Counted from the first letter of the stretch, positions 994-42,498 are shown. The stretch: DNA of 64,000 nucleotides from Candidatus Heimdallarchaeum aukensis (GCA_021513695.1 CP084166.1:2496001-2560000); one strand, 5' to 3'. The notes: generated by a model from the sequence alone, not told the origin. Program-made: numbers and translations.

Positions 994-2522
994 TTAAACA
1001 AAAAGAACAGACTAACACTTATTTAAATGATAAAGAAGTTCCATCGCATTGGAGAAGTTTAATAAAAGAACAACCTGTTTTTAAAGATACCAACAAAATT
1101 ATTCCAATAGATAAAAAAAATAATCGATTTCGTACTCTTTTATTGAACTCTATAAAAAACGCAAAACAAACGATTATGATGTGTTCTTTTATTCTTAGTG
1201 ATCCTGATATTATTGATTCGTTATTAAAAGCTTCAGAAAGGGGGGTTAGGTGTTATCTATTATTTTCTACAGAAGCTCAATTGTCAAAGGAATATAAAAA
1301 AGAACAATCAGAGTTTGATGAAAAGACCCTAGAAGAACATAAGCAGATGTTAGATAGACTTGCTGGAAAAATTTTAGCTAGAACGTGTGATCATTTACAT
1401 GCTAAATTTTTGTTAGTCGATTATGGCAATCCAGAACAGAAGGGTTTCATTTCAACTGCGAATTTTACAAAAGAAGCGCTTACAAGAAATCAGGAACTAG
1501 GTGTAATTCTTAGTGATTCTGAAATAAATTTTCTATTTAATTTCTTTGTATTAGGTTTTTGGGTCGAAAGTAAAAATGAACTAGTAAGAAAAAATAATTG
1601 GGACGCTGTTAAATTAATTAATCTTAAACCACTAAAAGGAAATAATCAAATTTTTTATACTACTAGTTCCAACCAAACCCTAAAAAACGAATTAGAAAAA
1701 ATAATCGAGAATGAAACAAAAGAATTAGTGGTCTCAAGTTATGGGTTTGATGATGAACATCCTATTGTAGAGTTACTAATAAATAAAGCACAAAATATTA
1801 ACTTGACCATAATTACAAGACCAAGAGAAAAAAATCATAAAGTCATAGAAAAATTTACAAATGCTGGAGCAAAGGTTGTTGCTTATGATTATCTACATGC
1901 AAAGTTTATTCTTTCGCCTTCAACAAATCAAGGAATAATTATGACTGCAAATTTAGAGAGTAAAGGTCTAGAAACTGGTTATGAGGTTGGTATTAAAATT
2001 ACAAGAAAATATTTTGATGAACTGTTAACAATCTCAAGAGTCTGGATCGATTCTGCACCATTAATTTGGTATAATAAGACTTCTATTAAAAATTTGGAAC
2101 CTGGTACAATCAAAATTCCTAAAGGGAAGGATTATGATACCATAGAAATTATTGATGAGTTTATAGATGAGCAAAAGATAGAGCCACAAGATTTGCATAA
2201 AATGGAGAAGTTATTAAAAGAAGAACCTAAATTAAAGAAAAATCTGGATAACAAACTTCCAAAAAAGATTATTGTTAAGAGAACAATTATTCCTCCAGTA
2301 CTTCCAAAGGATGCAGTAAAAGTAGAGTCTAAGCAACTATTTACTAGTAAGAAAAGTAGAAGAAGAGAAGCTGACGTAAAAGATAAGGAAATAAAGTTTC
2401 CCTTTGAAACTTATCGTTTAAAGAATATATATTATGTTGTTGTTAAGTCATTAAAAGATTTAGAAAAACTTAAGGAATTCCCTAAATTTAGACAAACTGT
2501 ACGTATTGTAACTAAAGGCTAA
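990..2522 (+). CDS. PLD-superfamily protein with two HKD motifs (putative nuclease), Lys-rich C-terminal tail
   Basis: Two HxK(x4)D-type motifs: 'HLHAKFLLVDYG...GFISTANFT' and 'YLHAKFILSPSTNQGIIMTANLES'. Start overlaps the upstream stop by 4 nt. Confidence 0.8.
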   Translation: MIKQKEQTNTYLNDKEVPSHWRSLIKEQPVFKDTNKIIPIDKKNNRFRTLLLNSIKNAKQTIMMCSFILSDPDIIDSLLKASERGVRCYLLFSTEAQLSKEYKKEQSEFDEKTLEEHKQMLDRLAGKILARTCDHLHAKFLLVDYGNPEQKGFISTANFTKEALTRNQELGVILSDSEINFLFNFFVLGFWVESKNELVRKNNWDAVKLINLKPLKGNNQIFYTTSSNQTLKNELEKIIENETKELVVSSYGFDDEHPIVELLINKAQNINLTIITRPREKNHKVIEKFTNAGAKVVAYDYLHAKFILSPSTNQGIIMTANLESKGLETGYEVGIKITRKYFDELLTISRVWIDSAPLIWYNKTSIKNLEPGTIKIPKGKDYDTIEIIDEFIDEQKIEPQDLHKMEKLLKEEPKLKKNLDNKLPKKIIVKRTIIPPVLPKDAVKVESKQLFTSKKSRRREADVKDKEIKFPFETYRLKNIYYVVVKSLKDLEKLKEFPKFRQTVRIVTKG

Positions 2523-3118: not shown

Positions 3119-4219
3119 ATGTCTGAAAAGCCAGTAATTTTGGAGTTTAGTGAGTTTTTTGAGAGTTATTTGTCAGAAAAACCTTTCATTATTCGAGGTT
3201 GGGATGAAGATGAGAATCAAGAATTTAGAATTGAATATAATGAAGGTATTACAACATTTGATAAAAATTTAAAACCCTTAGATATAAAGAATTATCTCTT
3301 TAATATTGGTATCTTCCCTTCTGATGAAAAATGGTGGAGAGAAAAAGCATTTAAAAAATTGGAAAAACGATATAATGAAGCAATTGAAGAAGAAGAGGTT
3401 CCTGCTCTGGGTTTAGATACAAATATAATAATAAATGGCGTTTTTATCAACAGGTTAAGAGGATTATTAAAAAGGAAACTTAAATGGGAAAATCCTCTCC
3501 TTCTACTGTCTCTTGCTTCATCTCACGAGCTTCACTATGGAGCAGAATCAAAATATAATGACTCGTTTTATAACAAATCAAAATTGGACAATATATGGGA
3601 ATTTATTTTATCACTAGATTCTCAAACACAGGAACTAGCTAAGACTGTTTTTGGCACCTATAAACCTATAGAAAACAAAAACATTTTGAGTTCTTTACAT
3701 TGTAAAAGAGGAAGAATAGGGCTTATAGGTTCATATAACTATTATAAACATAAGAAACTACCAAATACTCTCATCATAAAATCGATTCATCCTTATAATG
3801 TTGCAAAGTTTGATTCAGATGGGCATAAATATAAAGGAATTGATGCAATTTACGACACTTTAATTGCTTATGAGTTCACTCAGTTTATGACCTTTACAAA
3901 TACAAAAGTAACGATTTTAACAATGGATAATTCTTTAGCAAGTTTATTACAAAATGCATCAGTGGATGTAGTTTATATACCACCTCCAAGTAAATTTCAA
4001 TTACCAAAAGAAATAATTATCCCTCAAAGAAATTGTTCTATCCTTCTGAGAGAACTATTAGTAAGATCTCCTTTTATCGTTATTGAGGATGAAAATAAAA
4101 AAATAGTATTATCAATGATTTGGATAGGACAAACAGATGAAGAAAAAGCAAAAGGAGTAATTCATGGAGTAGTGAAAGAAAAAAATAAAACTAGATATTT
4201 ATTAATAAAGAGCCAATAA
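3119..4219 (+). CDS. PIN-like nuclease domain protein with uncharacterised ~95-aa N-terminal region
   Basis: 'ALGLDTNIIINGVF' is a typical first PIN acidic motif. Later candidate acidic positions are 'HYGAESKY', 'IDAIYDTLIAYE' and 'ILTMDNSLASLL' (T-x-D type last motif). GAGG lies upstream of the ATG. Confidence 0.45.
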   Translation: MSEKPVILEFSEFFESYLSEKPFIIRGWDEDENQEFRIEYNEGITTFDKNLKPLDIKNYLFNIGIFPSDEKWWREKAFKKLEKRYNEAIEEEEVPALGLDTNIIINGVFINRLRGLLKRKLKWENPLLLLSLASSHELHYGAESKYNDSFYNKSKLDNIWEFILSLDSQTQELAKTVFGTYKPIENKNILSSLHCKRGRIGLIGSYNYYKHKKLPNTLIIKSIHPYNVAKFDSDGHKYKGIDAIYDTLIAYEFTQFMTFTNTKVTILTMDNSLASLLQNASVDVVYIPPPSKFQLPKEIIIPQRNCSILLRELLVRSPFIVIEDENKKIVLSMIWIGQTDEEKAKGVIHGVVKEKNKTRYLLIKSQ

Positions 4220-4305
4220 ATTCTTATCATCTTTTTGTAATTCGCTTAATTGCTTCTTAAGTATTGAATAGATAAATTAAAGCAAGCTGATGCTAAAATA
4301 TTTAA

Positions 4306-5127
4306 GTGAAAAACACTTTTACTGTTATGGAAAATTGCTCTCTTTCTTCTAAAGATATGATTAAATTATACCTAGAAGTTGAAAAGGTTGCACGGTTTTA
4401 TGGAAAAATAAGACTTGTAGTCAATGATAAATTAAAGGCTGATCTTAAGGGAGAAGAGAAGACGAATTGTGGGCAGTTTCCTGCAAATAGTAAAAAGTTC
4501 CAAAAGTATTGGGGACTATTTAAAGAATTAAATATGAATACAAAGAAAATAAACAAATCCTATAAAACAATTAGTATTCCTAAAGAAGAATATAATAATT
4601 TAAAGAATAACAATAATAAATTAAAATATCAACGTTTTAATGTTCTTCGAGACTATTTTGCAATAAAAAGAATTCAAACTCTTCCACCAGAAAAAAAAGA
4701 ACAAATAATAATTACACTAGGATATAGAGATATCTTGCCACCAAACGTAGAAATGAAAACTTCAAATGAAAACCTAATCAAAATAATTGAAAATACAGAA
4801 GATTATTTAATTTATTTTAATTTGGAATCAGAGTTTGCGTTTCGTATGATATTTAGACATTTTTTGTGTTCGTTTTTGTTTAATGAACTTAACCTTTTTC
4901 CTGATAAAGAGATTCATATTTTAAAAAGAAATAGTTTGAAAAGCAAAAATAAGAATAATAAAGCTATTTCTAATCGTCTAATTATTTATAAGAGTGACAA
5001 GAAAAACTTTGAACTTATTTCAGAAACTACTTATCAAAACTTATTGAAACTTGTGGATGATACACAACTACACCAAAAACTTATGAAAATTCATTTAGAT
5101 TTTGAAAGAAATAAAGAAGGAATATAG
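4306..5127 (+). CDS. hypothetical Lys/Asn-rich protein (start uncertain: GTG 4306 or ATG 4327)
   Basis: Long ORF with no competing ORF on the other strand. No motif recognised. Confidence 0.4.
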   Translation: MKNTFTVMENCSLSSKDMIKLYLEVEKVARFYGKIRLVVNDKLKADLKGEEKTNCGQFPANSKKFQKYWGLFKELNMNTKKINKSYKTISIPKEEYNNLKNNNNKLKYQRFNVLRDYFAIKRIQTLPPEKKEQIIITLGYRDILPPNVEMKTSNENLIKIIENTEDYLIYFNLESEFAFRMIFRHFLCSFLFNELNLFPDKEIHILKRNSLKSKNKNNKAISNRLIIYKSDKKNFELISETTYQNLLKLVDDTQLHQKLMKIHLDFERNKEGI

Positions 5128-5172: not shown

Positions 5173-5949
5173 TTAATAATCATTAATGCAAATATCTTTG
5201 ATTTTAAAATTCTCTTTGCCTTCTTTAATTGGATACAAAAACCACCAACGCTTTGACAGCTCTTTTTCAGATATATTCTCTATGAGATTCGAAATAAAGT
5301 AAGAAAATGACAAGTTCTCTATTTTGTAGATAGAATACACATCATTAAGTTTGTCTTGCATTTCTCTTTCTAGCCATAATTTAATAAATAGATTTTCACC
5401 CATGCAAATATGATTTACAAACCCTTGACTATTTTTTAATGCTGCAATAATGTGTCCTTGAATTAATCCTTCATTTAAACTATTAGATCCACTATAAGCG
5501 AAAATTCCATTAAACTTGCTTTTTCCAATTATTTTTCCATTAAAAGACGCATTATCCATAATTTCTTTAATGTTGCTATTGTTTACTTTTGTTTTGACTT
5601 CAATGATACCTTTAACATTATCTGGTGTTGTAATTACAAAATCTCCTTCTACAAATAACGCTGGATATGTATTATCGTATAGAATTATATCTATTTGTTT
5701 TGATATTTCAGTTCCGAAATTCTCACAATTATGTTTATAATTAATTATGAATCCTGTTCCTATGCTTATGTTAGAAGGCAAAAAACGTTTAATAACATTT
5801 TTTAATATAGCTTCCTTAAATCTTCCTTCTTCTCCCCAGTGTCTATTTCCTATAAGATTTCTTACTCTATTTTGAACAATTTTCAACTCTCTTGTAATAG
5901 AACTATGAAATTCTTTAGGGTTTATATCCCATCTATTCCTCTGATTCAT
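5173..5949 (-). CDS. PD-(D/E)xK-type nuclease-like protein (resembles DUF6602 family)
   Basis: 'SKQIDIILYD...' followed ~30 aa later by 'VKGIIEVKTK' gives a D...E-x-K arrangement. Family assignment is from memory of the consensus, not a search. Confidence 0.5.
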   Translation of the reverse strand: MNQRNRWDINPKEFHSSITRELKIVQNRVRNLIGNRHWGEEGRFKEAILKNVIKRFLPSNISIGTGFIINYKHNCENFGTEISKQIDIILYDNTYPALFVEGDFVITTPDNVKGIIEVKTKVNNSNIKEIMDNASFNGKIIGKSKFNGIFAYSGSNSLNEGLIQGHIIAALKNSQGFVNHICMGENLFIKLWLEREMQDKLNDVYSIYKIENLSFSYFISNLIENISEKELSKRWWFLYPIKEGKENFKIKDICINDY

Positions 5950-6346: not shown

Positions 6347-7109
6347 GGTAGTGTCTAGTTTTTTTCCGACAAAAATATTTGTGGGGACTCTAATAGTAAG
6401 ATATGAAAACACAAAAACTATCTGCTCTTTTTAAGAGATGCAGAGTCCCCAAAAAAATAATAATAAAAGCTATTTATGAATATATTGGTTCAAAGAATGG
6501 TTTGAGGACAGTAGCATGGAAGAATGGTTTAACGCATCAAACATTATTGTATTGGGTAAAGAAGTTCAGGCTCTTTAGGGAAAGTTTACATAGAGTTGTA
6601 GCAGAGAGAGGGGGAATACCAGAGATTATAGTAGTAGATGAAACAGAGATTAGGACCTCTCAAGGCTCAATATATCTGTGGTTCGCGTTAGATCCTTACA
6701 ACAAGACTTTACTGGGTTTTAGTATTACTAAAGGACGGAGTAATCTTGAATGTTTACTAACTTTCCGTTATTGGCTCAAATGTTGGGGTTTTAAGCCTCG
6801 TATTGTCGTTACAGATGCAGGGGTATGGTATCCTGTCTTACTTCGTCTAGGTATCAAAATCTCCGTTATCAAAGGTGGTTTACGCTCCTATATTGAACGT
6901 TTTAATGCTACTCTTAAGAGTTATCGTTGGTTTCATTCTATTCTCCACTGCACTTGTCCTATCCGTGCCGTCTATGGCTCTACTCATCTTTCTGGTTTTC
7001 TTACTCTCTTTATGCTCCATTATAATTTCGTTCGTCCTCATCAGAGCTTGGGACATCCTCCCCTTAGTTCCTTTTTACCTAGGAGGTGGTATAAAAACTA
7101 GACACTACC
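6347..7109 (+). mobile_element. IS6-like insertion sequence, copy A (763 bp), with its own flanking direct repeat
   Basis: Terminal inverted repeats: GGTAGTGTCTAGTTTTT (6347-6363) and its reverse complement (7093-7109). A 9-bp direct repeat ATATAAAGC abuts each end (6338-6346 and 7110-7118). Single DDE ORF inside. Confidence 0.85.
6403..7101 (+). CDS. DDE transposase (IS6-like; family tentative)
   Basis: Candidate D-D-E: 'VVDETEI', 'VVTDAGVWY', 'YIERFNATLK' (K at E+7). C-terminal 'YNFVRPHQSLG' is integrase-core-like. About 93% identical to the copy at 14619-15317. Confidence 0.85.
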   Translation: MKTQKLSALFKRCRVPKKIIIKAIYEYIGSKNGLRTVAWKNGLTHQTLLYWVKKFRLFRESLHRVVAERGGIPEIIVVDETEIRTSQGSIYLWFALDPYNKTLLGFSITKGRSNLECLLTFRYWLKCWGFKPRIVVTDAGVWYPVLLRLGIKISVIKGGLRSYIERFNATLKSYRWFHSILHCTCPIRAVYGSTHLSGFLTLFMLHYNFVRPHQSLGHPPLSSFLPRRWYKN

Positions 7110-7408: not shown

Positions 7409-9922
7409 TTATTTATCTCTATTTATGAAATTCATTAAAACCTTTAAGCAAGAATATTCTTCTAATTTACCAATATAAACATTCTTGAATTCACCATTGA
7501 TTTTTTCTCTTAAAATTAAATGTTTCTGTTTATTTATTATCAGGCGCCCACCAGTTGGTTTAAATTTTCTAAAAATAAACCACAAACTTTGAGCTTCTGG
7601 AAAAGTAATTTTTTCTGCTAATTCTTTTGGTTTGTTCAATAATAATTTTCCATTTGATTTAAAACTCAGAGTAATTATTGCTTTAGTATCTCCTAGGTAA
7701 AAATCTCCAATCTCTAGTTTTTGCAAATCTTCTTCTTCAATTTCCTCTTTTTTCTTATATTCCTTTTCTAGCGGCTTTTCTGATATAAACTCTCCAAATT
7801 CTGACCACAAACGATATTCAATATTGCTTTCACCAATCACCTCATTCCAATTTAATTTATAGAATATTTTTTCATCTGTTGTGTTTTTTACATAAATATT
7901 GAACAATGTTGTGTGAGTTTTTCCTTTTGCTTTTCGGAGTATTCTTCCCAAGGATTGAATTCTTTGTATTTTTGAAGACGATGATGCCATTATAATTCCT
8001 ATATTTGTTGAAGGGATATCTACTCCTTCAATTAGTGCCTTAGCTGATAATAGAACTCTGGTTATTCCTCTTCTATACAAAGTTAAACCAATCCTATTAA
8101 GTGATGAAGGAAATCCTGAATGATAAATGCTTACATAGGGAGAATCTAATTCAACAAAAACTCTATTTATCTCCCCTATAAGTTCATGAAATAAAATAAC
8201 TCTATCGTTTCTTGAAATTGTATATAAAGGACTAGTTTCATCGCTATATTCTTGAATATTTTTTGAAATCACTCTATTTAATATTTTTAATGTGAGTTTT
8301 TTTCTATTTTCTGACTGATATACTAAGTCCTTCCTTTCCTTTATTTTTTTGAAGTATTGGTTAATAAGTGGATCTTTTTTTTCTTTACTCATTTTCTGTA
8401 GAACGGGATAAATATTTATCATGTCAAGTGATAGTTGAGGATATTTGTAATTTAATGCATCAATAATTTTACTTATTTCTTTAGTTAAATTTTCATATTT
8501 TCTTTTTTCATGATTTGTAAGGACTACTCCATAGTTGTAAATATTGTATTTTGGTATTATTCCATCATCAAATGCATTTTTGTAAGTATAATTTCCTATT
8601 ATTTCTCCTAATTCTCGAATAATAACTTCATTAAAAGCATCATCCGATTCTCTTTCTGGTGTAGCTGATAGTCCTAAAGTGTAAGATCTCTTAGCTTTAT
8701 ATATCTCACGAAACTTCGGGGCGCCAGATTTGTGACACTCATCTACAATTAAAAGATTTGCTTGTAATTTTTCTGTAACTTTTCCTATTAGATTGTTTTC
8801 TATTGCAGAATTAATGACAAAAATGAAAATTTCTTTTTGATCAAAACTGTCTGAATAATCACCACCTTTTAATGCAATTTTTGACGGTTCAACGTGTAGT
8901 TTTTCTATAAGATTATCATACCATTGTTCTAGAAGTACTATTGTTGGGACAACTATAGTAACTGTCAAATTTGGTTCAATTTTCTTCATTTCTTGAATAA
9001 TTGCCATGGCTAAGTGTGTTTTCCCAGCTCCAGTAACTACTTTAGCAATACCTCTTTTCTGTTTCATCCATCGTTCAAGGAATTTTGATTGCCATGAATA
9101 AAGAGAATCTTGCAATTGCCATTCTAGTCCTTTAGTTTTTTTTATCTCTTTTTTCATGTCAATAATTGGGTTTTTCATGAATTCATCAAAATCGTTTTGA
9201 TGTTTAAGTATTTGATATCTCCACTTTCGATTAGGGAGATGGGCTTTAATTGTTAAGTGATATAGTTTTCTCAATTCTCTTATTGGTACATCTCTTCTAT
9301 TTAGTTTCTGTAATCGAGTAAGTAATTCTTTACTTAAATTGTGGGCGTAGGATAAAATTTCTTTTCTATCTCTCTCTCCTAAACTAATAGTTCCTTGATA
9401 GTAGTGGATCACTCCACATAAATCTAATACTTTCAAAATTTCTGACAAATATCTTCTGATTGTGTCTACATTCTCAATTTCATAATCATTTGCTTTAAGT
9501 AAGGTAATAAACTTAGAAAGTTTCAATCCTGAATTGTTTTTGCAAACGATATCATAAACATCTGGTAAAAAGTAAGCCCATTCTAAATTTCGACAAAGGC
9601 ATTTTAAAATATAGTTTTTATATTTAATTTTTCCGTCTAAATATTGGACAGAAAGATCAGAGAGAAAATAAAATTCATCTAAATATAGCATTTTATATGT
9701 AACTAAGCTGCCCAAATATCTTTTTGCCGTAGTGACTTTTATCTTTCCTTCTAATGTGTTACATAGTAGTAGCTTTGCTTCTTCTTCTGTAACTTTTTTA
9801 TCACGCAATTGCTTTAGAAAATTCTTCATTTTTTCTTCTGACTCAAGAATTGGATAAATTAGAGTCATATGGGGAACTTTCTTTTTTGTATCAATCAAAC
9901 CATCTGTCATAATTATCATCAA
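7409..9922 (-). CDS. SF2 (DEAD/DEAH, ResIII/XPB-like) helicase with ~270-aa unknown N-terminal region and a C-terminal copy of the module shared with the two upstream genes
   Basis: Motif I 'VVTGAGKTHLA', II 'LIVDECHKSG', III 'LGLSATPE', VI 'IQSLGRILRKAKGK'. The C-terminal 102 aa (nt 7412-7717) carry 'IGDFY...FKPTGGRLIINK...VYIGKL'. Start is ambiguous (several Met within the first 19 codons). Confidence 0.85.
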   Translation of the reverse strand: MMIIMTDGLIDTKKKVPHMTLIYPILESEEKMKNFLKQLRDKKVTEEEAKLLLCNTLEGKIKVTTAKRYLGSLVTYKMLYLDEFYFLSDLSVQYLDGKIKYKNYILKCLCRNLEWAYFLPDVYDIVCKNNSGLKLSKFITLLKANDYEIENVDTIRRYLSEILKVLDLCGVIHYYQGTISLGERDRKEILSYAHNLSKELLTRLQKLNRRDVPIRELRKLYHLTIKAHLPNRKWRYQILKHQNDFDEFMKNPIIDMKKEIKKTKGLEWQLQDSLYSWQSKFLERWMKQKRGIAKVVTGAGKTHLAMAIIQEMKKIEPNLTVTIVVPTIVLLEQWYDNLIEKLHVEPSKIALKGGDYSDSFDQKEIFIFVINSAIENNLIGKVTEKLQANLLIVDECHKSGAPKFREIYKAKRSYTLGLSATPERESDDAFNEVIIRELGEIIGNYTYKNAFDDGIIPKYNIYNYGVVLTNHEKRKYENLTKEISKIIDALNYKYPQLSLDMINIYPVLQKMSKEKKDPLINQYFKKIKERKDLVYQSENRKKLTLKILNRVISKNIQEYSDETSPLYTISRNDRVILFHELIGEINRVFVELDSPYVSIYHSGFPSSLNRIGLTLYRRGITRVLLSAKALIEGVDIPSTNIGIIMASSSSKIQRIQSLGRILRKAKGKTHTTLFNIYVKNTTDEKIFYKLNWNEVIGESNIEYRLWSEFGEFISEKPLEKEYKKKEEIEEEDLQKLEIGDFYLGDTKAIITLSFKSNGKLLLNKPKELAEKITFPEAQSLWFIFRKFKPTGGRLIINKQKHLILREKINGEFKNVYIGKLEEYSCLKVLMNFINRDK

Positions 9923-10712
9923 TTGAGTAGATTATTTTGGGCTCTCTTGGTCTGTCAATTTGTATTTGATGCTCATATTTTCCCAGATAGATAGGATACC
10001 AACTTATTTCTTTATCTTTGTTTCGACGATCTTTTTGAGGTTTTGTATACTCATTTAACAAATTTTTTTGGAGATTAGAAAAATCACGCCATTGTTGATC
10101 AATTATATCGCTTTTTAATACATCTTTTTTTATTAGATACTTCATTCTATCTTGAGTAATGGCTGTCCACATGTGCCCATATTCATTTATCCAAATAGAA
10201 CCTGCATTAAGCCAATTATATGAATTCTGCATTCTTCCTCTTAATTGGCATATCCTTTTCAGAAAACTGTTATTAAAATTTTGTACATAATAAGTTATTG
10301 AAGTACTTTTTGTATTACTTTGAATTTTTTCTAGAAAATAAATTCGTCCTTCTCTAGAAAATTTATACTTTGAACCGTGCTTTCTTAAAAATCCTGTCCA
10401 TAAAGAGCCAATTTCTAGATTTCTGGGGTTAATCTCAATATCTTCAAAAACTAACTCCTTATTTAATTGTCCAACATAAACTGGCAACCATTCATTCTTC
10501 TTTTTTCTAATATAAGTAATAATCTCTCTTTCTTCATTAATTATTATTCGACCACTATTCTCCTTTCTGACATCAATTATGTCTTCTATAATCTTTGAGA
10601 CGTCAGTGGTTGTTGGAATTTTTATATCTCTATCTTTGTAGTAAATGCCATCAATATTATAAACATATTTTGACCCTCGAACATGCTTGTCATAAATATC
10701 TCCTTTTTTCAT
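9891..10712 (-). CDS. hypothetical protein made of two copies of the shared module
   Basis: Copy 1: 'KKGDIY..GSKYVYNIDG..ENSGRIIINEEREIIT..PVYVGQL'. Copy 2: 'IGSLW..GSKYKFSREG..AGSIWINEYGHMWT..YPIYLGKY'. ATGA overlap with the upstream gene at 10709-10712. Confidence 0.6.
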   Translation of the reverse strand: MKKGDIYDKHVRGSKYVYNIDGIYYKDRDIKIPTTTDVSKIIEDIIDVRKENSGRIIINEEREIITYIRKKKNEWLPVYVGQLNKELVFEDIEINPRNLEIGSLWTGFLRKHGSKYKFSREGRIYFLEKIQSNTKSTSITYYVQNFNNSFLKRICQLRGRMQNSYNWLNAGSIWINEYGHMWTAITQDRMKYLIKKDVLKSDIIDQQWRDFSNLQKNLLNEYTKPQKDRRNKDKEISWYPIYLGKYEHQIQIDRPREPKIIYSIDDNYDRWFD

Positions 10713-12403
10713 TTTAATACACCAATTCTCGATAAAAATTCATTATCATCTTCTTCTGACCATTCTTTCTCTAAATCATAAGGAGGTTTGAATTTTATAT
10801 TTCCTGAAAATTTACCTAAATAAATTGGAATCATTCCGTCTCTATCGGTTTTTTTCCTAATATCAATCAAATTTTTTTCAAAATTTGATAACTTTGATAT
10901 TTGGTTTAATATTCTTCTAGGATAAGGAGCAGAGTACATTAATGTCAATATTGCTCCATTCTCGTTTATTTTTATTCTTCCACCTTGTGGTTTAAATTGT
11001 AAAACTGTTTCCACTATCTTTTCATGCCCTTCAACAGCATAAAATTTCCTGCCAGATACTTTTATGAATAATTGTCGATTAGCATTAATTCCAAAAGTGG
11101 TTCCATCATATATACTTGGCCATAAATCTCCTTTTTTTAACTTTAAAGGTTTCCAGGAAATTTTATTTTCTTTGAAAATTATTTCTCCAGTTAACATTGT
11201 AACAAATATCTGTTTGTATTCGCCATTTACTTCTTTTTTAGTGATTATTTCTCCGCTTTCAGTGATACGAAAACTACCACCTAGTGGTCTACAATTAAGA
11301 AGTTTGTTTTTTACTCTATTATCAGAAAATTCTATCTCAAGTTTTGTGTCTGTACCACTCAAAGACCACCAAAAACGACCATCAGAATTAAAATGATATT
11401 TAGTTCCACGATAGATACTGTGGTAGGTTTCATTCTCTTTGGAGTCCAAAGGAGCTAACCAAAAATCAGAGCGATAAAGATATTGATCATGAGATTTTGT
11501 GGTGTTTATTTCTTCTCGTTTTTTTAATAGTTCTTTCCAGTTTTCTTGCAAAGATATTTTGCCGTCTTTTACTGTATTCACTAGTTTAAGTTCTTTTAAT
11601 GTTTCTAGCAATCTTAATCCGTTTTCTTCACCAATTAAAATCAAAATTTCATTTAATTTTAACTCCAGTTTATTATTGAATAAGAGCAAAATTAATTTTT
11701 CTAGTTCATATGGTGATGGATCAATAAGATCAATTTCATTGATTATATTTTGTAAAGTAAATTTGTTATCATCTTTTAAATTATCTATTTCAAATAGTTC
11801 ATCAATACTGTACTCAACTACGCCAAATTTTTCAATAATTAAAGATAGCTCTGATTGTTTAAAAACAAATTCATTTGATGAAGTATTAGATAAAAATTGA
11901 GTGAGATTAATTTCATTTAGAACATTAAACCATAGATGTTTATCTCTTTCAATTTGATTGGTATCGTAAGAACTATCTCCTTTAAAACAAACAATAGAAC
12001 TAATATGCCTAACTGGTTGTTGTATAAAGCGGGCTGAAATAGATTTTAATACTTCATTAATGTAGTTCATTAATTCATATCTCTGTGATCTAACTTGCCT
12101 GAAAATGTTTTTTCCTCCATTAATAGGCAATTTTTTATTTTGGTCAGTTACAACATACCATTCACTGTTTTCGGATCCAATTACTTTTCCTTCATAATTT
12201 TTGACTTCAACACTAATAATAGCTTTATCTTTGAGGATAATTAAGTCATACTGGTGTTTTCCAATAATATAATCTAAAATTATGTGAATTGTTTGCTTAC
12301 TATTTTGAAATTCATCATAGATATTTTTTAATATCTTAGTAATTTGTTTTTTTTCATTTTCTTCAAAATCTAAAAAACCTGAATAATATGCCTTCACAGT
12401 CAT
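10709..12403 (-). CDS. NERD-domain protein with central helical/wHTH-like region and two C-terminal copies of the shared module
   Basis: NERD-like 'YDLIILKDKAIISVEVKNYEGKVIGSENSEWYV...NIFRQVRSQRYEL' (aa ~50-112). Module copies at aa ~308-412 ('GTKYHFNSDG..RPLGGSFRITESGEIIT') and ~413-540 ('KKGDLW..KPQGGRIKINENGAILT..IPIYLGKF'). Confidence 0.7.
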   Translation of the reverse strand: MTVKAYYSGFLDFEENEKKQITKILKNIYDEFQNSKQTIHIILDYIIGKHQYDLIILKDKAIISVEVKNYEGKVIGSENSEWYVVTDQNKKLPINGGKNIFRQVRSQRYELMNYINEVLKSISARFIQQPVRHISSIVCFKGDSSYDTNQIERDKHLWFNVLNEINLTQFLSNTSSNEFVFKQSELSLIIEKFGVVEYSIDELFEIDNLKDDNKFTLQNIINEIDLIDPSPYELEKLILLLFNNKLELKLNEILILIGEENGLRLLETLKELKLVNTVKDGKISLQENWKELLKKREEINTTKSHDQYLYRSDFWLAPLDSKENETYHSIYRGTKYHFNSDGRFWWSLSGTDTKLEIEFSDNRVKNKLLNCRPLGGSFRITESGEIITKKEVNGEYKQIFVTMLTGEIIFKENKISWKPLKLKKGDLWPSIYDGTTFGINANRQLFIKVSGRKFYAVEGHEKIVETVLQFKPQGGRIKINENGAILTLMYSAPYPRRILNQISKLSNFEKNLIDIRKKTDRDGMIPIYLGKFSGNIKFKPPYDLEKEWSEEDDNEFLSRIGVLK

Positions 12404-12800: not shown

Positions 12801-13994
12801 ATGGATGTTCTTCTTGCAATAGAATCTGTTCTTTTTGATGAGAAGAAAACTAGTACATACAAATTTGCTTTGGTAACTGCAATTATTGATTATGTCATAG
12901 AAAATCCAAACGAGTTTCCAGAAAACGGTTTTCACTATATACCAATTATTTATCTAGCAAAAAGGTGGTTATATTATTATTATCCATTGATGGTTTATGG
13001 GGAGAGAGGAGTTAGACAAGGATCAACACAGATATCTTTGCATCGATTTATTAGAGAATTTGTTGAAAAGCAAAGGGATAAGTCAATAAATTATTTTGAA
13101 CCTGAAGCAATTCTTAAAATTAAAGAAAGAATAGAAGATAATGAAATATTGGATAAGGAACTGATTTCTTTACTAATAAAGATAAGAAGAGTTATAATAA
13201 GCCAACCTTTACAATTCATTAAAATTGCCAGTAATAGTTTTATTCAAGAAGAGTTAGTAGAAGGAATAAAATTTAAAGATGAAACCTTTTCTCTCTTTGG
13301 ACTATATAACAGTTTACTAAAATATAATGAAAAAGAAAACTATCAAAGTATTAGATCGAAATCAACTAATTGGGAAGGAGAAAGAGGAGAACAAACTTGG
13401 TTGGAATTGGAAGCTGAAGAGACATTATTTATACAAATGGGACATTATACTTACAAAGAATTAGCAGAATCAAGATTTTTTATAAAAGATGCAATAATAA
13501 AAAGATGGTTAGAATATTCAGTAGAAAAGTATCTGCAAGCAGATGCTAAAGCAATTTATGCATTATTTTACGGACTAAAACTACATGAAAAAAGACTGGA
13601 AAGAGAATCAGGAAAAATACAGAAGATGAGAAAAATAGCCTTAACAGTTTTTAAACCGATGAAATGTATTTACTGTGGAAAAGAAATAAGAAAATTTGAA
13701 CTAGATCACCTAATACCTTGGTCAAAGTTTCCAGTTGATAGATTCTGGAATCTCTTTCCAGCATGCGAAAGTTGCAATAGAAAAAAATCAGATAAGATCA
13801 TAAGTATAGAAAGAAATATTCAAAGTAAAATAGCTGAATATTTAAAAGCGTGGCTGGAATATTTTATAGAAAATAAGGAAGAATTGGCAGTCCTAGGAGG
13901 AAAAGAAACTCACAATCTAAATATGGAAAATATAGAATCTTCAATTCATCTGTTATTAGAACAAATAAAAGAAATAAATCAGAATTTAATTTAG
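12801..13994 (+). CDS. HNH endonuclease with ~290-aa uncharacterised N-terminal region
   Basis: C-terminal 'CIYCGKEIRKFELDHLIPWSKFPVDRFWNLFPACESCNRKKSDK' has the CxxC...DH...N...CxxCN pattern. The N-terminus ('TSTYKFALVTAIIDYV') is unassigned. Confidence 0.85.
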   Translation: MDVLLAIESVLFDEKKTSTYKFALVTAIIDYVIENPNEFPENGFHYIPIIYLAKRWLYYYYPLMVYGERGVRQGSTQISLHRFIREFVEKQRDKSINYFEPEAILKIKERIEDNEILDKELISLLIKIRRVIISQPLQFIKIASNSFIQEELVEGIKFKDETFSLFGLYNSLLKYNEKENYQSIRSKSTNWEGERGEQTWLELEAEETLFIQMGHYTYKELAESRFFIKDAIIKRWLEYSVEKYLQADAKAIYALFYGLKLHEKRLERESGKIQKMRKIALTVFKPMKCIYCGKEIRKFELDHLIPWSKFPVDRFWNLFPACESCNRKKSDKIISIERNIQSKIAEYLKAWLEYFIENKEELAVLGGKETHNLNMENIESSIHLLLEQIKEINQNLI

Positions 13995-14610: not shown

Positions 14611-15372
14611 GGTAGTGTCTAGTTTTTATACCACCTCCTAGGCAAAAAGGAACTAAGGGGAGGATGTCCCAAGCTCTGATGAGGACGAACGAAATTATAA
14701 TAGAGCATAAAGAGTGTAAGGAAACCAGAAAGATGGGTAGAGCCATAGACGGCACGGATAGAACATGTGCAGTGGAGAATAGAATGAAACCAACGATAGC
14801 TCTTAAGGGTAGCATTAAAACGTTCAATATAGGAGCGTAAACCACCTTTGATAACGGAGATTTTAATACCGAGACGACGTAATACAGGATACCATACCCC
14901 TGCATCTGTAACGACAATACGAGGCTTAGAACCCCAACATTTGAACCAATAACGAAAAGTTAGTAAACATTCAAGATTACTCCGTCCTTTAGTAATACTA
15001 AAACCCAGTAAAGTCTTGTTGTAAGGATCTAACGCGAACCACATGTACATTGAGCCTTGAGAGGTCTTAATCTCTGTTTCATCAACTACTATAATCTCTG
15101 GTATTCCCCCTCTCTCTGCTACAACTCTATGTAAACTTTCCCTAAAGAGCCTGAATTTCTTTACCCAATACCATAGTGCCTGGTGTGTTAAACCATTCTT
15201 CCATGCTACTGTCCTCAAACCATTCTTTGAACCGATATATTCATAAATAGCTCTTATGATTATTTTCTTGGGGATTCTGCTCCCTTTAAAAAGGGAGTAT
15301 ATTCTTAGTTTGTTCATATTTTCACATTAGAATCCCCAATAATATTTTTGTCGGGAGAAACTAGACACCACC
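14611..15372 (-). mobile_element. IS6-like insertion sequence, copy B (762 bp), inverted relative to copy A, with its own flanking direct repeat
   Basis: IRs: GGTAGTGTCTAGTTTTT at 14611-14627, and ...AAACTAGACACCACC ending at 15372 (one mismatch). A 10-bp direct repeat ATAGAAAACC sits at 14601-14610 and 15373-15382. Confidence 0.85.
14619..15317 (-). CDS. DDE transposase (IS6-like), copy B
   Basis: 232 aa, collinear with the 6403-7101 product. Differences cluster in the first 13 aa, with scattered substitutions elsewhere. Confidence 0.85.
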   Translation of the reverse strand: MNKLRIYSLFKGSRIPKKIIIRAIYEYIGSKNGLRTVAWKNGLTHQALWYWVKKFRLFRESLHRVVAERGGIPEIIVVDETEIKTSQGSMYMWFALDPYNKTLLGFSITKGRSNLECLLTFRYWFKCWGSKPRIVVTDAGVWYPVLRRLGIKISVIKGGLRSYIERFNATLKSYRWFHSILHCTCSIRAVYGSTHLSGFLTLFMLYYNFVRPHQSLGHPPLSSFLPRRWYKN

Positions 15373-15423: not shown

Positions 15424-16245
15424 ATGAAAAAAGAGAAAGAGGACGCAATTAAAAAATTTGCGAATATTTTTTCAATGACAGCGGGAAATAGAAGTATATA
15501 TAAACACCTGGATTTTCTATTTAAAGATGATTATAATGGTTCAACAAAGAGAGATCAAATTATCTATTTATTAAAGAAATATTATCCTGATAATAAAAAA
15601 CTTATGTACATCTTAAGAGAGATTTTTGCAGTTCATAATGTTTCTTTTGTTAAACGTAATATTGATAAAATCAATGAATGCCTTATAAATTTTAATCTAT
15701 ATGTTGATGAAAATTTAAAACTTAATGTAATTGATTCTGTGATTATGTGTCTTAATGAGGCTGAATTCATAGTCAATTCTCAATTAGACAATATTCCGAA
15801 AAACTTACCCCAAATGCCAGAAGATATCCTGGAAAAAGGAAAAAATATGGCTTATGCATATTTACTTTTATATATCCTTGAAAATTATTTGAGGTTATTC
15901 ATAAGCCAAGCTAATAAGAATAAAAAATTAGAATACAGCGCTGGACAGAAAAAGAAAATAGAAAATAGAAAAAATCAAGAAGAAAAAAACACGTATCACG
16001 CTGTAAGAGGTACAAATGATCTCTTTTATCTTGATCTTAGTGATTTATGTTCTATAATTGTAAATAATTGGAATAGTTTTATTAAATATTTTCCAAATCA
16101 AAATTTCATCAAAACTAGGCTTGAGGAATTAGTAATAACACGGAATCACGTTGCTCATAATAGTATCATTTCTGACAATGATTTCAGGAGATTAATAACA
16201 TATTTTGAAGATATCCTTAATCAAATAGCCTTTTACTTTCATTAA
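15424..16245 (+). CDS. HEPN-domain protein (Swt1-like R-N-x-x-A-H motif) with unknown N-terminal region
   Basis: 'LEELVITRNHVAHNSIISDNDFRRL' near the C-terminus matches the Rx4H HEPN signature. Confidence 0.5.
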   Translation: MKKEKEDAIKKFANIFSMTAGNRSIYKHLDFLFKDDYNGSTKRDQIIYLLKKYYPDNKKLMYILREIFAVHNVSFVKRNIDKINECLINFNLYVDENLKLNVIDSVIMCLNEAEFIVNSQLDNIPKNLPQMPEDILEKGKNMAYAYLLLYILENYLRLFISQANKNKKLEYSAGQKKKIENRKNQEEKNTYHAVRGTNDLFYLDLSDLCSIIVNNWNSFIKYFPNQNFIKTRLEELVITRNHVAHNSIISDNDFRRLITYFEDILNQIAFYFH

Positions 16246-16317: not shown

Positions 16318-17919
16318 TTATTTCTCAAGTTCTTCTTTTATAGATGGAGTTACCCCCCCATGTTTCATTCTACGTTTCTTAATATTAACTAAAAGTGTAA
16401 AAGGAACAGATAATCCTGTAACCATAGCTTCACCAGTAGCTAGCCCTTTAATTGCTTCGAAATCTTCTTTTGTCATATGTTCTGCAATGTTTTGTACATA
16501 ATTTTGGTCTTTTGGATTCATCATTCTTAGTATAAAATGGGTGTTACATTGGCTTAAAATGTCTGCATCAACTTTAGAAGGTCTTTGTGATACAATACAC
16601 AATCCCATACCAAATTTTCTTCCTTCAGAAGCAACTCTTGCAATTATCTGTTTAGAAGCAGAAGGGCTTGTTCCTGGAGGAATGAAATTATGTGCTTCTT
16701 CAATAATTGTTAAAAATGGCTTTATTTTTGATTCATAACTTGTTTTCCTCAAATCAAAGAGTTTTCTTAGAATTAATCCTACTAAAGCTTGTTGATCAAA
16801 AGCTTCAATTCCTCCTAAGTCTAATATTGATATTTGCCCTTTCTTTACAAATTCTGAAACATCAGTTCCTTTTCCAAAAGTAAAATATGGTCTTTTCAAT
16901 AGTGCTCTCATTTTATTTTCAAGTGCTCTTCTTGTTCCTTTGTGTTCTATTCTTTCTATTGACTTTTCTATTAATTCCTCAATGCTGGTTGGAGGATTTC
17001 CATCAAGTGCTTCCATATGTATTTCATCCCAACCTCGATCTAATGATGCACTCTGAGCCTCTGAAATACCATAGTACTGTGAAAGTAAAGTCTTGATTTG
17101 CCATGTCTCTAACTCTGCTGGATGAAACTTAACACTAATTGTTACTCTTTTTCTTCCATGAACATCTTCAAACTTCTTTTCAAGTAAATAATTAAATTCT
17201 CCAGGAACAAATGTTAGTACTGACTTTGAGATTTCACGTGCTTCTCTTGAATCTTCATTAGGAATAAGTGTTGAAGAATATTCGCTATGAGGATCAATAA
17301 GAATGATGGGTAGTTTGAGATTATCTATTAAATATAATTCTTCGAGAATAACACCAACAGTATAACTTTTTCCTGCTCCTGTCATTGCTAAAACTGAAAA
17401 ATGATGTGTTACAAGTTTTTCATAATCTATATATGCTGGAACATTATGATTATCTCTCAAATTACCAATAATAATTGTTCTATCCTTAATGAAAAAAGAA
17501 GAAACAAATTCATCATCGGCCATATAAATAATTGTACCAGGATTAAGAGGGATTCGAGGTCTGACAAAGGCATTTCCTATTTTTCTTCCAATTATTAAAA
17601 CTGAAAATCCCATCATTCCAGCAATTTCAGAAGCTAATCCTAAATGTTCAATAGTCATAGAACTTGCCTCTAAGTCTTTTGTTCTAAGTTTTGGCATCAT
17701 ATTTTCATCTAATAGTAATCTGTTTTTTGTCCAAACAGATATAACTCTCCCTAGTAAAAATTCTTGTTTTTTATTTTCATCTAGATATTGTATTTTTACT
17801 AGTCTACCAATACCAATACTTGGCGAGTCTTTCAGAGCAATTGCTTCTACCAAGTATGGTGTTGTTTTTCCATAAACTATTCCAACAGGTATGTTTTTTT
17901 TCTCTCTATTTTGTTCCAT
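16318..17919 (-). CDS. herA: HerA-type (DUF87/FtsK-HerA superfamily) ATPase
   Basis: Walker A 'LAMTGAGKSYT', Walker B 'LTIIEEAHNFIP', 'GMGLCIVSQRPSKVD'. The N-terminal barrel-like region is 'PVGIVYGKTTPYLVEAIA'. Lies 9 nt downstream of the nurA-like gene. Confidence 0.85.
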   Translation of the reverse strand: MEQNREKKNIPVGIVYGKTTPYLVEAIALKDSPSIGIGRLVKIQYLDENKKQEFLLGRVISVWTKNRLLLDENMMPKLRTKDLEASSMTIEHLGLASEIAGMMGFSVLIIGRKIGNAFVRPRIPLNPGTIIYMADDEFVSSFFIKDRTIIIGNLRDNHNVPAYIDYEKLVTHHFSVLAMTGAGKSYTVGVILEELYLIDNLKLPIILIDPHSEYSSTLIPNEDSREAREISKSVLTFVPGEFNYLLEKKFEDVHGRKRVTISVKFHPAELETWQIKTLLSQYYGISEAQSASLDRGWDEIHMEALDGNPPTSIEELIEKSIERIEHKGTRRALENKMRALLKRPYFTFGKGTDVSEFVKKGQISILDLGGIEAFDQQALVGLILRKLFDLRKTSYESKIKPFLTIIEEAHNFIPPGTSPSASKQIIARVASEGRKFGMGLCIVSQRPSKVDADILSQCNTHFILRMMNPKDQNYVQNIAEHMTKEDFEAIKGLATGEAMVTGLSVPFTLLVNIKKRRMKHGGVTPSIKEELEK

Positions 17920-17928
17920 TTTCCTTCC

Positions 17929-19053
17929 TCAATGTAGTAATTTTCTCATTTTTGAATTAATCAAATCTCTGGCAATATCTGGTGCAATATCTCGTATCTC
18001 ATAAATTAGTTGGGTAAAGACTTTGGATGAAAATGATTTTGTTACTCTTGTAAGTTCGTCTACAAAAACTAAAGGATAAGGATATCCAACAACAGGTGAA
18101 ATCCGACATAAGTCATTAAATAATTCAAATAGTGAGTCCAATTTGGATAAATCCCATTTTGGAAATTCTAGATATAGTGCATGAGATGAATTAGGATACA
18201 AATAATAGGTACTACAAACACCTTCTCTTTTTAAGATTGAAATTGGGATTTCACCATGGGTGATACCAGCGACTGAAACATCTAAAGGTTCAAAATAAGC
18301 TGGTTTATCAGGCGAATATTTTCGTATTATATGTTGTAAAGCTATTCTTTCTCTCCAAGATTCATTTTCAATTAAATTTCGAAGAATTTCTAACTTTTCT
18401 TTATTAATATTTAATTTATCCATTACTTCCTTATCACACTTTAAAGCTCTTAGATATTTAGCTCTTCTCGCATCTTTTGATACTGCAATTACACTCACTT
18501 TACTCTTTTTTAAAGCTAAATTAAAAAAATCATTAGCATTTTTTTGATACTTTAGGAAAGCATCTGACAATTCTCTTATGTTAGTAACATTTACAGAAGT
18601 ATCAGGAAATGTGATAGCTCCATCAAGTAAAACAAGAGTTGGAATATCATCATCTATTTCATTAATTGCTTTTTTTGCAACATAATATTCTAAAGACTTC
18701 ATGAAAGTGGATGAAACTATTGAAGCTATATCTGAAGCTGGAGTATCAAAAAGTTGAATATCATTAAAATCAGTAATTTTTGCCTTTCCAAGTGTAATCA
18801 TAAAGGCTCGAGCAGAAGCAACAGCAAATCCCACTCCTTCTAAAGATGTATGATCCATCCCCCCATCAACGGCTATAACTCTCCAATTTTCATCTGAAAA
18901 TGATTTATATTTTGGAATATTTATGATAAGATCTTTTAAAATTTTGAAGTTATTGGCCTGTCTTCTAACTTTTGCAACAAGTTTTGGTACTTCTATTCTT
19001 CTATATCTATCAATTTCTTTCATAATAAGATTGAAATTATCCATTATCTTCAC
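17929..19053 (-). CDS. nurA: NurA-like nuclease
   Basis: 'WRVIAVDGGMDHT', 'LVLLDGAITFPD', 'VIAVSKDARR' and 'VGYPYPLVFVDELTRV' match conserved NurA blocks. Adjacency to herA supports the call. Confidence 0.72.
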   Translation of the reverse strand: MKIMDNFNLIMKEIDRYRRIEVPKLVAKVRRQANNFKILKDLIINIPKYKSFSDENWRVIAVDGGMDHTSLEGVGFAVASARAFMITLGKAKITDFNDIQLFDTPASDIASIVSSTFMKSLEYYVAKKAINEIDDDIPTLVLLDGAITFPDTSVNVTNIRELSDAFLKYQKNANDFFNLALKKSKVSVIAVSKDARRAKYLRALKCDKEVMDKLNINKEKLEILRNLIENESWRERIALQHIIRKYSPDKPAYFEPLDVSVAGITHGEIPISILKREGVCSTYYLYPNSSHALYLEFPKWDLSKLDSLFELFNDLCRISPVVGYPYPLVFVDELTRVTKSFSSKVFTQLIYEIRDIAPDIARDLINSKMRKLLH

Positions 19054-19783
19054 ATTCTTTTAGCTTGTTATCTAATTCTGGCCATTTCAGCCTTAGTTGA
19101 TGTAATCTGTCATTAAAATCTGTAGCACATCCAATTTTTTCGTCTTTAATCTCTAAAATGCCTTTTTCAATAAAAATTTCCATCCATTCTGATATTTCAT
19201 CAATCTCAGCTAATCTGTAAAAATCGCTTAGGGATATTGATTCTCCGAAACTCATCAAAAAGGTTAATGAACGTTGAATTCCATCCCATACTCTTTTAGA
19301 GAATTTTGGAAATGCAGCTTCAGATACTGTGATATTTTTGAATATCTCTTTAAATATGTTTTTTATCAGTTCTGTTTCAAGTTTTCTGTGATACTCTGTA
19401 AAGTATGGCAAACAATAGATAAAGTTGTCTCGAATGATAGCAATAATGTGTTTTTGGAATTTAATTGTTTTGTCTTTAGCTTCTATTCCAACGTTTCCAA
19501 CTTTCAAGATTTCTCTCTGATTTTCAAATTTGATTGAATCTAAAGTAACCTCACAACTTTTTATCGTTTTACAAAAATGTTCAATATCTATTTTAGAAAG
19601 AGCGATTATTATTCCTATGCGGTTACTAGTTATTTCTTTTTTATAGTCTTCAATTAATGAGTAAGTAATTAAGATACAATTTGATTGTTTAATATCATCT
19701 GTTCTTGAAAATTCAGTGTCTTCTAAAATAAATTTTAGAGGATTATATATTTGAGGAGGAATGAACATCTTCATACTTAACAC
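19037..19783 (-). CDS. hypothetical protein (248 aa), operon member
   Basis: Its 3' end overlaps the nurA-like start by 17 nt. Its start abuts the stop of the 1224-aa gene. No motif recognised. Confidence 0.5.
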   Translation of the reverse strand: MLSMKMFIPPQIYNPLKFILEDTEFSRTDDIKQSNCILITYSLIEDYKKEITSNRIGIIIALSKIDIEHFCKTIKSCEVTLDSIKFENQREILKVGNVGIEAKDKTIKFQKHIIAIIRDNFIYCLPYFTEYHRKLETELIKNIFKEIFKNITVSEAAFPKFSKRVWDGIQRSLTFLMSFGESISLSDFYRLAEIDEISEWMEIFIEKGILEIKDEKIGCATDFNDRLHQLRLKWPELDNKLKECEDNG

Positions 19784-42479: not shown

Positions 42480-42498
42480 AAATATACTCTTTAAACAC

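Follow-up and report, generated by a model that had tools for sequence, protein, structure and literature searches.

A three-gene operon of Candidatus Heimdallarchaeum aukensis in which a NERD nuclease, a free repeat protein and an XPB/PbeA-like helicase share one repeat unit: probably an undescribed restriction-like antiviral module

Several described systems lie close to the one considered here. Archaeal XPB has an N-terminal damage-recognition domain and a partner nuclease, Bax1; SauUSI is a type IV ATP-dependent restriction enzyme; the helicase of Nhi belongs to superfamily 1 (SF1) and HamB of Hachiman is Ski2-like. The PbeABCD and CxC-ABC-ATPase-DndE systems were reported by Xiong et al. 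(2019; PMC6459918) and later re-annotated (PMC10853773). Most PbeA helicases carry an HKD (PLD) endonuclease fused at the N-terminus (PMC10853773). Here, we analyse a 64,000-nucleotide (nt) stretch of the Candidatus Heimdallarchaeum aukensis genome (GCA_021513695.1, CP084166.1:2496001-2560000; the whole stretch is hereafter the window), in which three minus-strand genes encode a NERD-domain protein, a 273-amino-acid (aa) protein and a superfamily 2 (SF2) helicase. In this closed 3.08 Mb genome, the trio is annotated only as 'NERD domain-containing protein' or 'hypothetical protein'. Our results suggest that it is probably an undescribed restriction-like antiviral module, in which the three subunits carry homologous copies of one repeat unit. 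The anatomy and distribution of the trio family are solid, and the immune function is read from its genomic context.

An earlier note, made from the sequence alone, had described three tightly coupled genes in a dense defence island, with an ATGA overlap at 10709-10712 and an ORF overlap at 9891-9922, and had not been able to match them to a named defence system. This description holds. The three open reading frames (ORFs) are present (Table 1), and genes 1 and 2 share an ATGA, read directly on the minus strand at 10712-10709 ('...GGT GTA TTA AAA TGA' / 'ATG AAA AAA GGA'). The stop codon of gene 2 (9893-9891) lies inside the helicase ORF, whose start could be TTG 9922 (837 aa), ATG 9919 (836 aa) or ATG 9910 (833 aa), the overlap with gene 2 being 20-32 nt for any of them; the 836-aa version is 100% identical to a database entry (P0288). 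These overlaps imply co-translation. PADLOC assigns the trio to no described system: only the motor resembles PbeA, and only the N-terminus of the NERD protein resembles PDC-M16A.

The three subunits are linked by the repeat unit. The 273-aa protein, which the earlier note had seen as lacking a catalytic motif, matches no Pfam, NCBIfam or PADLOC family. In a BLAST self-comparison of the trio, its residues 2-267 align with residues 322-553 of the NERD protein (E = 1e-12) and a short match to the helicase tail is obtained; it is a full-length paralogue of the C-terminal half of the NERD protein. Its AlphaFold model, built from a 48-sequence alignment (predicted local distance difference test, pLDDT, 86; predicted template modelling score, pTM, 0.85), contains two tandem units of ~100 aa, each made of three strands, a helix and three strands (beta3-alpha-beta3), the second with a helical insert. 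The two units are homologous to each other (hhalign 99.4%, E = 1.9e-21), and the C-terminal ~90 residues of the helicases from NERD-bearing (type A) loci form a further unit (98.8%, E = 5.7e-17 against unit 1; 98.3% against unit 2). Because the units of the NERD C-terminus, the 273-aa protein and the helicase tail are homologous, each system carries five copies of one domain, a pair in the nuclease protein, a pair in the free protein and a single one at the end of the motor protein. Among 48 family members, weak Pfam, NCBIfam and PADLOC matches to the module were scattered and none was recurrent, and the module profile found no sequence relative among the solved structures of the PDB. The unit has no fold neighbour in the PDB either, a negative that extends to solved structures only.

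The NERD domain of gene 1 scores above the gathering threshold of Pfam PF08378 (E = 1.3e-10, aa 34-140, 42.2 bits against a cutoff of 22.1). Its catalytic set (E19, D55 and E66-x-K68) is intact and is conserved in an alignment of six type A orthologues, where position 66 is E or D; the peptide from which the domain had originally been recognised holds D55 and E66-x-K68. The N-terminal ~200 aa also match the PADLOC candidate model PDC-M16A (E = 5.6e-22, model positions 1-204 of 917). Between the nuclease domain and the module units, residues 211-320 match no Pfam, NCBIfam or PADLOC family and, judged by eye, seem to form a small helical, possibly winged-helix, domain. A Candidatus Helarchaeota metagenome-assembled genome (MAG) encodes a protein (MHA1233222.1) at least 90% identical to the NERD protein of the window, which points either to a recent transfer from one Asgard lineage to another or to an error in binning.

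The helicase contains the Pfam domains ResIII, DEAD and Helicase_C and, in agreement with its first description as a DECH-box SF2 helicase with intact core motifs, motifs I (GAGKT, 298), II (DECH, 394), III (SAT, 419) and VI (QSLGRILR, 656). Its best PADLOC model is PbeA (E = 8.5e-62, 208 bits), matched at profile positions 216-635, i.e., over the motor only, and the NCBIfam model TIGR04095 (dnd_restrict_1) gives 165 bits, where its cutoff is 600. Among proteins of solved structure, archaeal XPB/Rad25 (AfXPB, E = 2e-29) and XPBII (E = 6e-28) come closest, with chains from XPB-Bax1 complexes included. In the alignment, SATPERESDD of the helicase stands opposite TATFERE--D of XPB, a RED-like motif after motif III, and Pfam ERCC3_RAD25_C reaches 24.8 bits, just below its cutoff of 27. 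From these comparisons, the helicase belongs to the XPB/PbeA-like clade. PbeA is the closest named relative of its motor; nevertheless, since true haloarchaeal PbeA scores 555 bits on the PbeA models, against 208 bits for the trio helicase, the latter represents a separate, paralogous clade. Moreover, the N-terminal ~215 positions of the PbeA profile are unmatched, and in place of the HKD nuclease the trio helicase has a winged-helix region and a module tail. Its N-terminal 262 aa have no Pfam match, PLD included, and their model (pLDDT 86, pTM 0.80) folds as a tandem winged helix resembling the recognition domains of the type IIS enzymes BpuJI, N.BspD6I and FokI (11-14% identity); this region is predicted to be a restriction-enzyme-type DNA reader. 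Since the winged-helix N-terminus, the XPB-like motor and the tail unit are combined, the helicase is predicted to unite the functions of reader, motor and docking unit in a single chain.

We define the family by a PbeA/XPB-like helicase that bears one or more beta3-alpha-beta3 units at its C-terminus, together with at least one adjacent free two-unit protein. It comprises the window, the type A loci L001-L015 and L037/38, the haloarchaeal (type B) loci L016-L036 and L042-45 and the bacterial (type C) loci L039-41. In a single-sequence search of 5.8 billion proteins, the 273-aa protein has only five relatives, each located between a NERD/module gene and a helicase gene where the contig allows it to be seen, with unrelated flanks. 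Together, the metagenome scan, the genome scan and look-ups give at least 10 distinct and divergent type A loci (GC content 27-39%, 36-65% identity, unrelated flanks), whose named sources are Asgard archaea (Heimdallarchaeum and a Helarchaeota MAG), MAGs of Thermoplasmata/Thermoplasmatota and a single MAG labelled Mollicutes. The order is NERD-module, module, helicase in every related low-GC contig that is long enough, with one orphan module gene (in L011) as the sole exception, so the co-localisation asked for by the earlier note is recovered across genomes. Because the same gene order recurs in at least 10 independent loci with unrelated flanks, the trio is beyond chance. In none of the type A loci elsewhere does the cassette include a methyltransferase, and no integrase, Rep or partition genes travel with the type A trios. 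Extra free P2-like module genes lie beside, or a few kb from, some systems of the family, haloarchaeal ones included (L037 6144-6899, L024 6177-7073 and L035 2437-3333).

The haloarchaeal and bacterial relatives of the trio do not have the NERD nuclease. The module profile retrieves 259 proteins by a word-indexed search and 226 cluster representatives among 1.84 billion by an exhaustive scan, nearly all of them without annotation. In haloarchaea, one protein of the type B trio (~300 aa) is orthologous to the C-terminal half of the NERD protein and lacks the NERD domain, and another, also of ~300 aa, is orthologous to the middle protein. The helicase, of 950-1080 aa, has a PbeA-like motor, a unit on its tail and an N-terminus that is in part homologous to the winged-helix region of type A. 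Of about 13 B2-type loci, 6, which come from different genera, have a true PbeABCD cassette as the immediate neighbour of the trio (PbeA 555 bits; PbeC 726 bits with its CxC motif; a ~55-aa PbeB; PF27807 PbeD). Other type B copies, four of the five inspected on megaplasmids among them, have no adjacent Pbe genes and are located among prokaryotic Argonaute (pAgo), Mrr, UvrD-nuclease and MBL/AAA/VWA genes. The sub-branch B1 has conserved partners of ~800, ~372 and ~498 aa without any family and a convergent N6/N4 DNA methylase. The B1 loci are L016, L017, L019, L025 and L029/L030, and the ~375-aa partner recurs on two megaplasmids (L042, L044). In addition, the system of Natrinema pellirubrum pNATPE02 lies ~2.4 kb from a Piwi-domain (pAgo) gene, and in the Haloferax/Halorhabdus loci (L035, L043, L045) the annotated core is one module protein and a helicase, with a divergent SNF2 gene; two Haloferax loci have a P2-like gene ~7 kb away beside an Mrr-type endonuclease (confirmed from the sequence only for L035).

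Next in closeness to the window helicase come hundreds of ~730-aa bacterial helicases, for which loci from two bacterial genomes were examined (type C). In L039, the helicase (E = 5e-85 to the window helicase) has a unit on its tail, and the genes after it encode a free two-unit protein of 229 aa, an ABC ATPase of the NsnB/AriA/GajA type that begins with two module units (its N-terminal ~250 residues), a 298-aa protein and a second free two-unit protein; these genes adjoin PglZ-BrxL. The 298-aa protein (11100-11996) has no Pfam or PADLOC family and may serve the bacterial version as an effector. A Pirellulaceae genome has the helicase and a module protein of 236 aa inside a bacteriophage exclusion (BREX) locus, between PglX and PglZ. 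No PADLOC model matches the type C module proteins, including the PADLOC candidates (PDC), which were derived from embedded genes (10.1101/2024.01.29.577857). Across viral contigs, phage genomes and plasmids, members of the family are found only as type B trios on haloarchaeal megaplasmids, and none occurs in viral contigs, phage genomes or bacterial plasmids. Because the haloarchaeal and bacterial relatives lack NERD, the nuclease lies outside the conserved core, which consists of the module-tailed helicase and the free module proteins. The enzyme fused to the module is exchangeable: the window has NERD, one bacterial locus has an ABC ATPase, and the haloarchaea have none.

Taken together, these observations are best explained by the trio being an autonomous, ATP-dependent, restriction-like, DNA-targeting defence complex held together by the shared units, a prediction that in our judgement is evenly balanced. 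The five homologous units would associate with one another and form a scaffold tethering the NERD nuclease to the motor, the winged helices would select foreign DNA, the XPB-like motor would translocate on or open double-stranded DNA, as XPB does beside Bax1, and NERD would cut the selected DNA. That the units bind each other is suggested because this domain is fused to different enzymes and present on the helicase tail in every subtype checked, and because the middle protein consists of units alone. Since no methyltransferase is present in the cassette or in any type A locus, the discrimination between self and non-self is probably modification-dependent (type IV-like) or based on a cue other than a cognate methylation mark. 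A defence context in three distant lineages (the window island, BREX, PbeABCD and the megaplasmid pAgo/Mrr/UvrD-nuclease genes) supports this proposal, as does the kinship of the helicase with the archaeal XPB translocases, its nearest relatives of solved structure, some of them in complex with the Bax1 nuclease. The overlapping genes, the recurrent gene order, the parallel divergence of all the domains between loci and the absence from viral contigs and phage genomes also count in its favour. The arrangement of nuclease, adaptor and motor that the earlier note had proposed is therefore retained in outline, with nuclease and motor motifs intact, and has to be amended in its parts: the adaptor is a paralogue of the C-terminal half of the NERD protein, a fifth unit is found on the helicase, which also carries a DNA reader, and NERD does not belong to the conserved core.

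Several observations weigh against this interpretation. The association between units is deduced from their shared homology and fusion patterns only, and the units, which are basic, could act as sensors or bind DNA instead of forming a scaffold. The type B trios have no recognisable nuclease, as an hhalign comparison of their helicase N-terminus, which has only the winged-helix region in common with type A, with NERD finds nothing, so cleavage may not be the core activity. The likeness of the winged helices is at the fold level only and is no proof of sequence-specific recognition. An orphan module gene (L011 1805-2578, E = 2e-52 to the 273-aa protein) stands between TPR-repeat proteins. Finally, PbeABCD, the owner of the nearest named helicase relative, is reported to block replication without DNA degradation (PMC6459918).

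A broader version of the restriction-like proposal can be formulated tentatively, as possible although on the unlikely side: the unit would be a new docking domain defining a hitherto unrecognised superfamily of helicase-centred immune modules. At least five homologous units of different subunits would come together, possibly with DNA at their centre, and couple exchangeable effectors (NERD, ABC ATPase) to an XPB-like translocase, and the versions linked to BREX and Pbe would supply a DNA-cutting or DNA-clearing arm that both systems seem to be without. Such a superfamily would span Asgard, Thermoplasmatota and Halobacteria archaea and several bacterial phyla.

The neighbourhoods of the relatives allow a different interpretation, which we regard as unlikely, namely that the trio is not autonomous but serves as an accessory or reserve effector within a larger system (PbeABCD/CxC-ABC-DndE, BREX or restriction-modification, R-M), whose modification or scanning machinery it would need. 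The PbeABCD cassettes directly beside the haloarchaeal trios, the bacterial relatives embedded in BREX or adjoining PglZ-BrxL, the fusion of the module to an ABC ATPase, the conserved convergent methylase of B1 and the paralogy of the trio helicase with PbeA are all consistent with such a role. Nevertheless, genes of the Pbe, Dnd or BREX systems turned up neither in the 64-kb window nor in any type A contig, the type A flanks are unrelated from locus to locus, four haloarchaeal megaplasmid copies have no adjacent Pbe cassette, and dndCDEA-pbeABCD protects alone (PMC6459918). In addition, defence systems cluster for reasons besides functional coupling.

The divergence of the module bears on a further alternative, quite unlikely in our view, in which the units would be sensors of a viral protein, a nucleotide or a DNA structure and the trio would act by abortive infection, NERD degrading host and viral DNA once triggered. 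Between type A loci, the free module protein (36-57% identity) diverges faster than the helicase core (54-72%), a pattern that direct contact with an invader would lead one to expect. The units are basic (isoelectric point 8.8-9.4), within a lysine-rich proteome; extra free module genes are present in three loci (L037, L024, L035), and stand-alone NERD nucleases have been proposed to be suicide effectors (PMC10853773). However, conservation is comparatively high in the P1-type units (51-65% identity). Mutual association is also the simpler explanation for a unit that is found on all three subunits and on different enzymes in the relatives.

The kinship of the motor with XPB, i.e., its best solved relatives AfXPB and XPBII, with chains of the XPB-Bax1 complex among them, and its RED-like motif, would be compatible with a housekeeping DNA-repair pair without any immune role, but this is very improbable: the distribution is very patchy, as the representatives counted by the exhaustive scan indicate, the loci lie in defence islands, between insertion sequence (IS) copies, on megaplasmids and inside BREX, the N-terminus is a restriction-type reader rather than the XPB damage-recognition domain, and the nuclease is NERD rather than Bax1. 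Distribution and context indicate defence, not XPB-Bax1-like repair. It is equally improbable that the trio is cargo serving the replication, partition or exclusion of a transposon or plasmid, as the two inverted IS copies around it, the variable neighbourhoods and the haloarchaeal megaplasmids might suggest, because the IS, an ordinary element of the rve type, encodes its own transposase, the trio has no accompanying integrase, Rep or partition genes, the family is missing from viral contigs and phage genomes, and its neighbours are overwhelmingly defence genes.

The window around the trio is the dense defence island described in the earlier note (Table 1). Pfam and PADLOC scans covered 30 of its 40 ORFs of at least 150 aa, and tRNA and Rfam scans of the window were empty. 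The two IS arms (750 nt, 93% complementary) enclose the trio and an HNH gene in a composite-transposon-like arrangement; as no homologue of the HNH gene is found near any other trio, it is not counted in the system. The type III R-M system contains its Mod gene twice: a 276-aa ORF (41649-42479) matches the first 272 positions of the MTase_III model that it shares with the 853-aa Mod (43013-45574), with a 174-aa ORF between them, which may represent a duplicated or switchable 5' end. A minus-strand operon (16318-23458) encodes HerA (533 aa), NurA (374 aa), a 248-aa protein and a 1224-aa AAA protein; its HerA scores best on defence-type HerA models of PADLOC, and the two other partners have no family. 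No further Dpd genes were detected near the DpdA-like tRNA-guanine transglycosylase (TGT). Three other island ORFs, within 3119-5127 and 34212-37667 (366, 273 and 1151 aa), have no Pfam family, the first two also lacking a PADLOC match; the 1151-aa ORF, which has an 11-nt overlap with the AddA-like gene, could encode an AddB-like partner.

Table 1. Positions of the trio, its domains and the neighbouring features in the window.
Feature	Position	Strand	Basis or remarks
Gene 1, NERD/module protein	10709..12403	-	564 aa; UJG40397.1, 'NERD domain-containing protein'; exact Ca. Heimdallarchaeum aukensis protein match
NERD PD-(D/E)xK nuclease domain, aa 1-210	11774..12403	-	Pfam PF08378, PADLOC PDC-M16A N-terminus, conserved residues
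Linker, aa 211-320, no annotation	11444..11773	-	No family match; weakly conserved in orthologue alignment
NERD-protein module unit 1, aa ~322-421	11141..11440	-	BLAST, family alignments
NERD-protein module unit 2, aa ~422-553	10745..11140	-	BLAST NERD 422-539 vs 273-aa protein 1-90; alignment
Gene 2, free two-unit module protein	9891..10712	-	273 aa; UJG40396.1, 'hypothetical protein'; AlphaFold model
273-aa protein module unit 1, aa 1-97, beta3-alpha-beta3	10422..10712	-	Model secondary structure; hhalign
273-aa protein module unit 2, aa 98-262, same fold with helical insert aa 187-222	9927..10421	-	Model; hhalign
Gene 3, helicase	7409..9922	-	ORF, start candidates, 100%-identical database entry
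Helicase N-terminal tandem winged helix, predicted DNA-recognition module, aa 1-262	9137..9922	-	
XPB/PbeA-like SF2 motor, aa 268-690	7853..9121	-	Pfam, PADLOC PbeA, PDB AfXPB, motifs
Helicase C-terminal tail module unit, aa ~736-822	7457..7717	-	hhalign, BLAST
DrmC-like PLD nuclease	990-2522		
NucC-like DUF6602 nuclease	5173-5949		
Left IS copy, 232-aa rve-type transposase	6360-7109	+	Repeat search, Pfam rve
HNH protein	12801-13994		
Right IS copy, second inverted arm	14611-15360	-	Repeat search
Swt1-type HEPN protein	15424-16245		
HerA-NurA	16318-19053		
DpdA-like TGT	25283-26515	-	PADLOC DpdA E 2e-8
GmrSD	27123-29267		
AddA-like UvrD/PD-(D/E)xK protein	30500-34222		
Type III R-M system	38666-45574		

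Among known prokaryotes, Heimdallarchaeia are the closest relatives of eukaryotes. The unusually small size of their catalogued defence repertoire has been taken as a hint that further systems await discovery (PMC11291487), and the trio is a concrete candidate for one of them. More generally, the module marks a coherent set of archaeal and bacterial operons that use one kind of XPB/PbeA-like motor with different enzyme partners. If the units are indeed a docking device, prokaryotic immunity would gain a new case of modular assembly. How PbeABCD and BREX act on foreign DNA might become clearer from the relatives that recur next to the former and within the latter, and the restriction-type reader on the helicase suggests a route to target specificity.

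How, then, does the trio relate to the described systems? It is not a PbeABCD system, as it has no HKD domain and no PbeB, PbeC or PbeD: phmmer searches with haloarchaeal PbeA/B/C/D against the window ORFs of at least 45 aa match only the helicase, and the scanned window ORFs contain no SMC/AAA_23 or DndE-like protein (Pfam, PADLOC). Membership in PDC-M16 is likewise ruled out, since the remainder of the 917-position model is unmatched and the two other proteins match no PDC model. With Nhi and Hachiman, from which the earlier note had rightly set it apart, the trio shares the general logic of a helicase combined with a PD-(D/E)xK-type nuclease; however, PADLOC gives no Nhi match and, unlike the one-chain nuclease-helicase Nhi, the trio has its nuclease and SF2 helicase in separate proteins, while the HamB models match only weakly (E = 1e-7 over aa 257-400) and HamA not at all. 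Papers defining or surveying the nearest systems (Dnd/Pbe, BREX, embedded systems, YprA) describe neither the module nor the trio (PMC6459918, PMC10853773, PMC12839542, 10.1101/2024.01.29.577857, PMC12458937, PMC8813620, PMC11291487), nor does the literature on PDC-M16, on NERD with XPB or in anti-phage defence and on Asgard or haloarchaeal defence, within a non-exhaustive search.

The association of a DNA reader, a ResIII-type SF2 motor and a nuclease recalls the Res subunits of type I/III systems and the type IV enzymes, and the motor C-lobe has weak PADLOC matches to REase_MTase_IIG and mREase_IV. A type I/III R-M system is ruled out, as there is no methyltransferase between the IS arms and the sole one in the window belongs to the separate type III system (38.7-45.6 kb). 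The lack of a methyltransferase in the cassette is shared with type IV enzymes such as SauUSI. In contrast to these ATP-dependent restriction enzymes, the trio splits its activities over three polypeptides joined by a repeat domain and uses a NERD nuclease; in contrast to BpuJI, N.BspD6I and FokI, it has no FokI-type cleavage domain and its reader is attached to a motor. With archaeal XPB-Bax1 (PDB 6p66, 6p4f), it shares the XPB-type SF2 motor, the RED-like motif and a separately encoded nuclease. The trio is not a full member of XPB/Rad25: its motor is of that kind, whereas its N-terminus is a type IIS-like reader, its partner nuclease is NERD rather than Bax1, and it has an extra module protein. 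The kinds of motor and nuclease are known parts, and what distinguishes the trio is a repeat domain shared between its subunits, without a match in Pfam, PADLOC or the PDB, together with a larger family through which operons of Asgard archaea, haloarchaea and bacteria are connected with Pbe and BREX.

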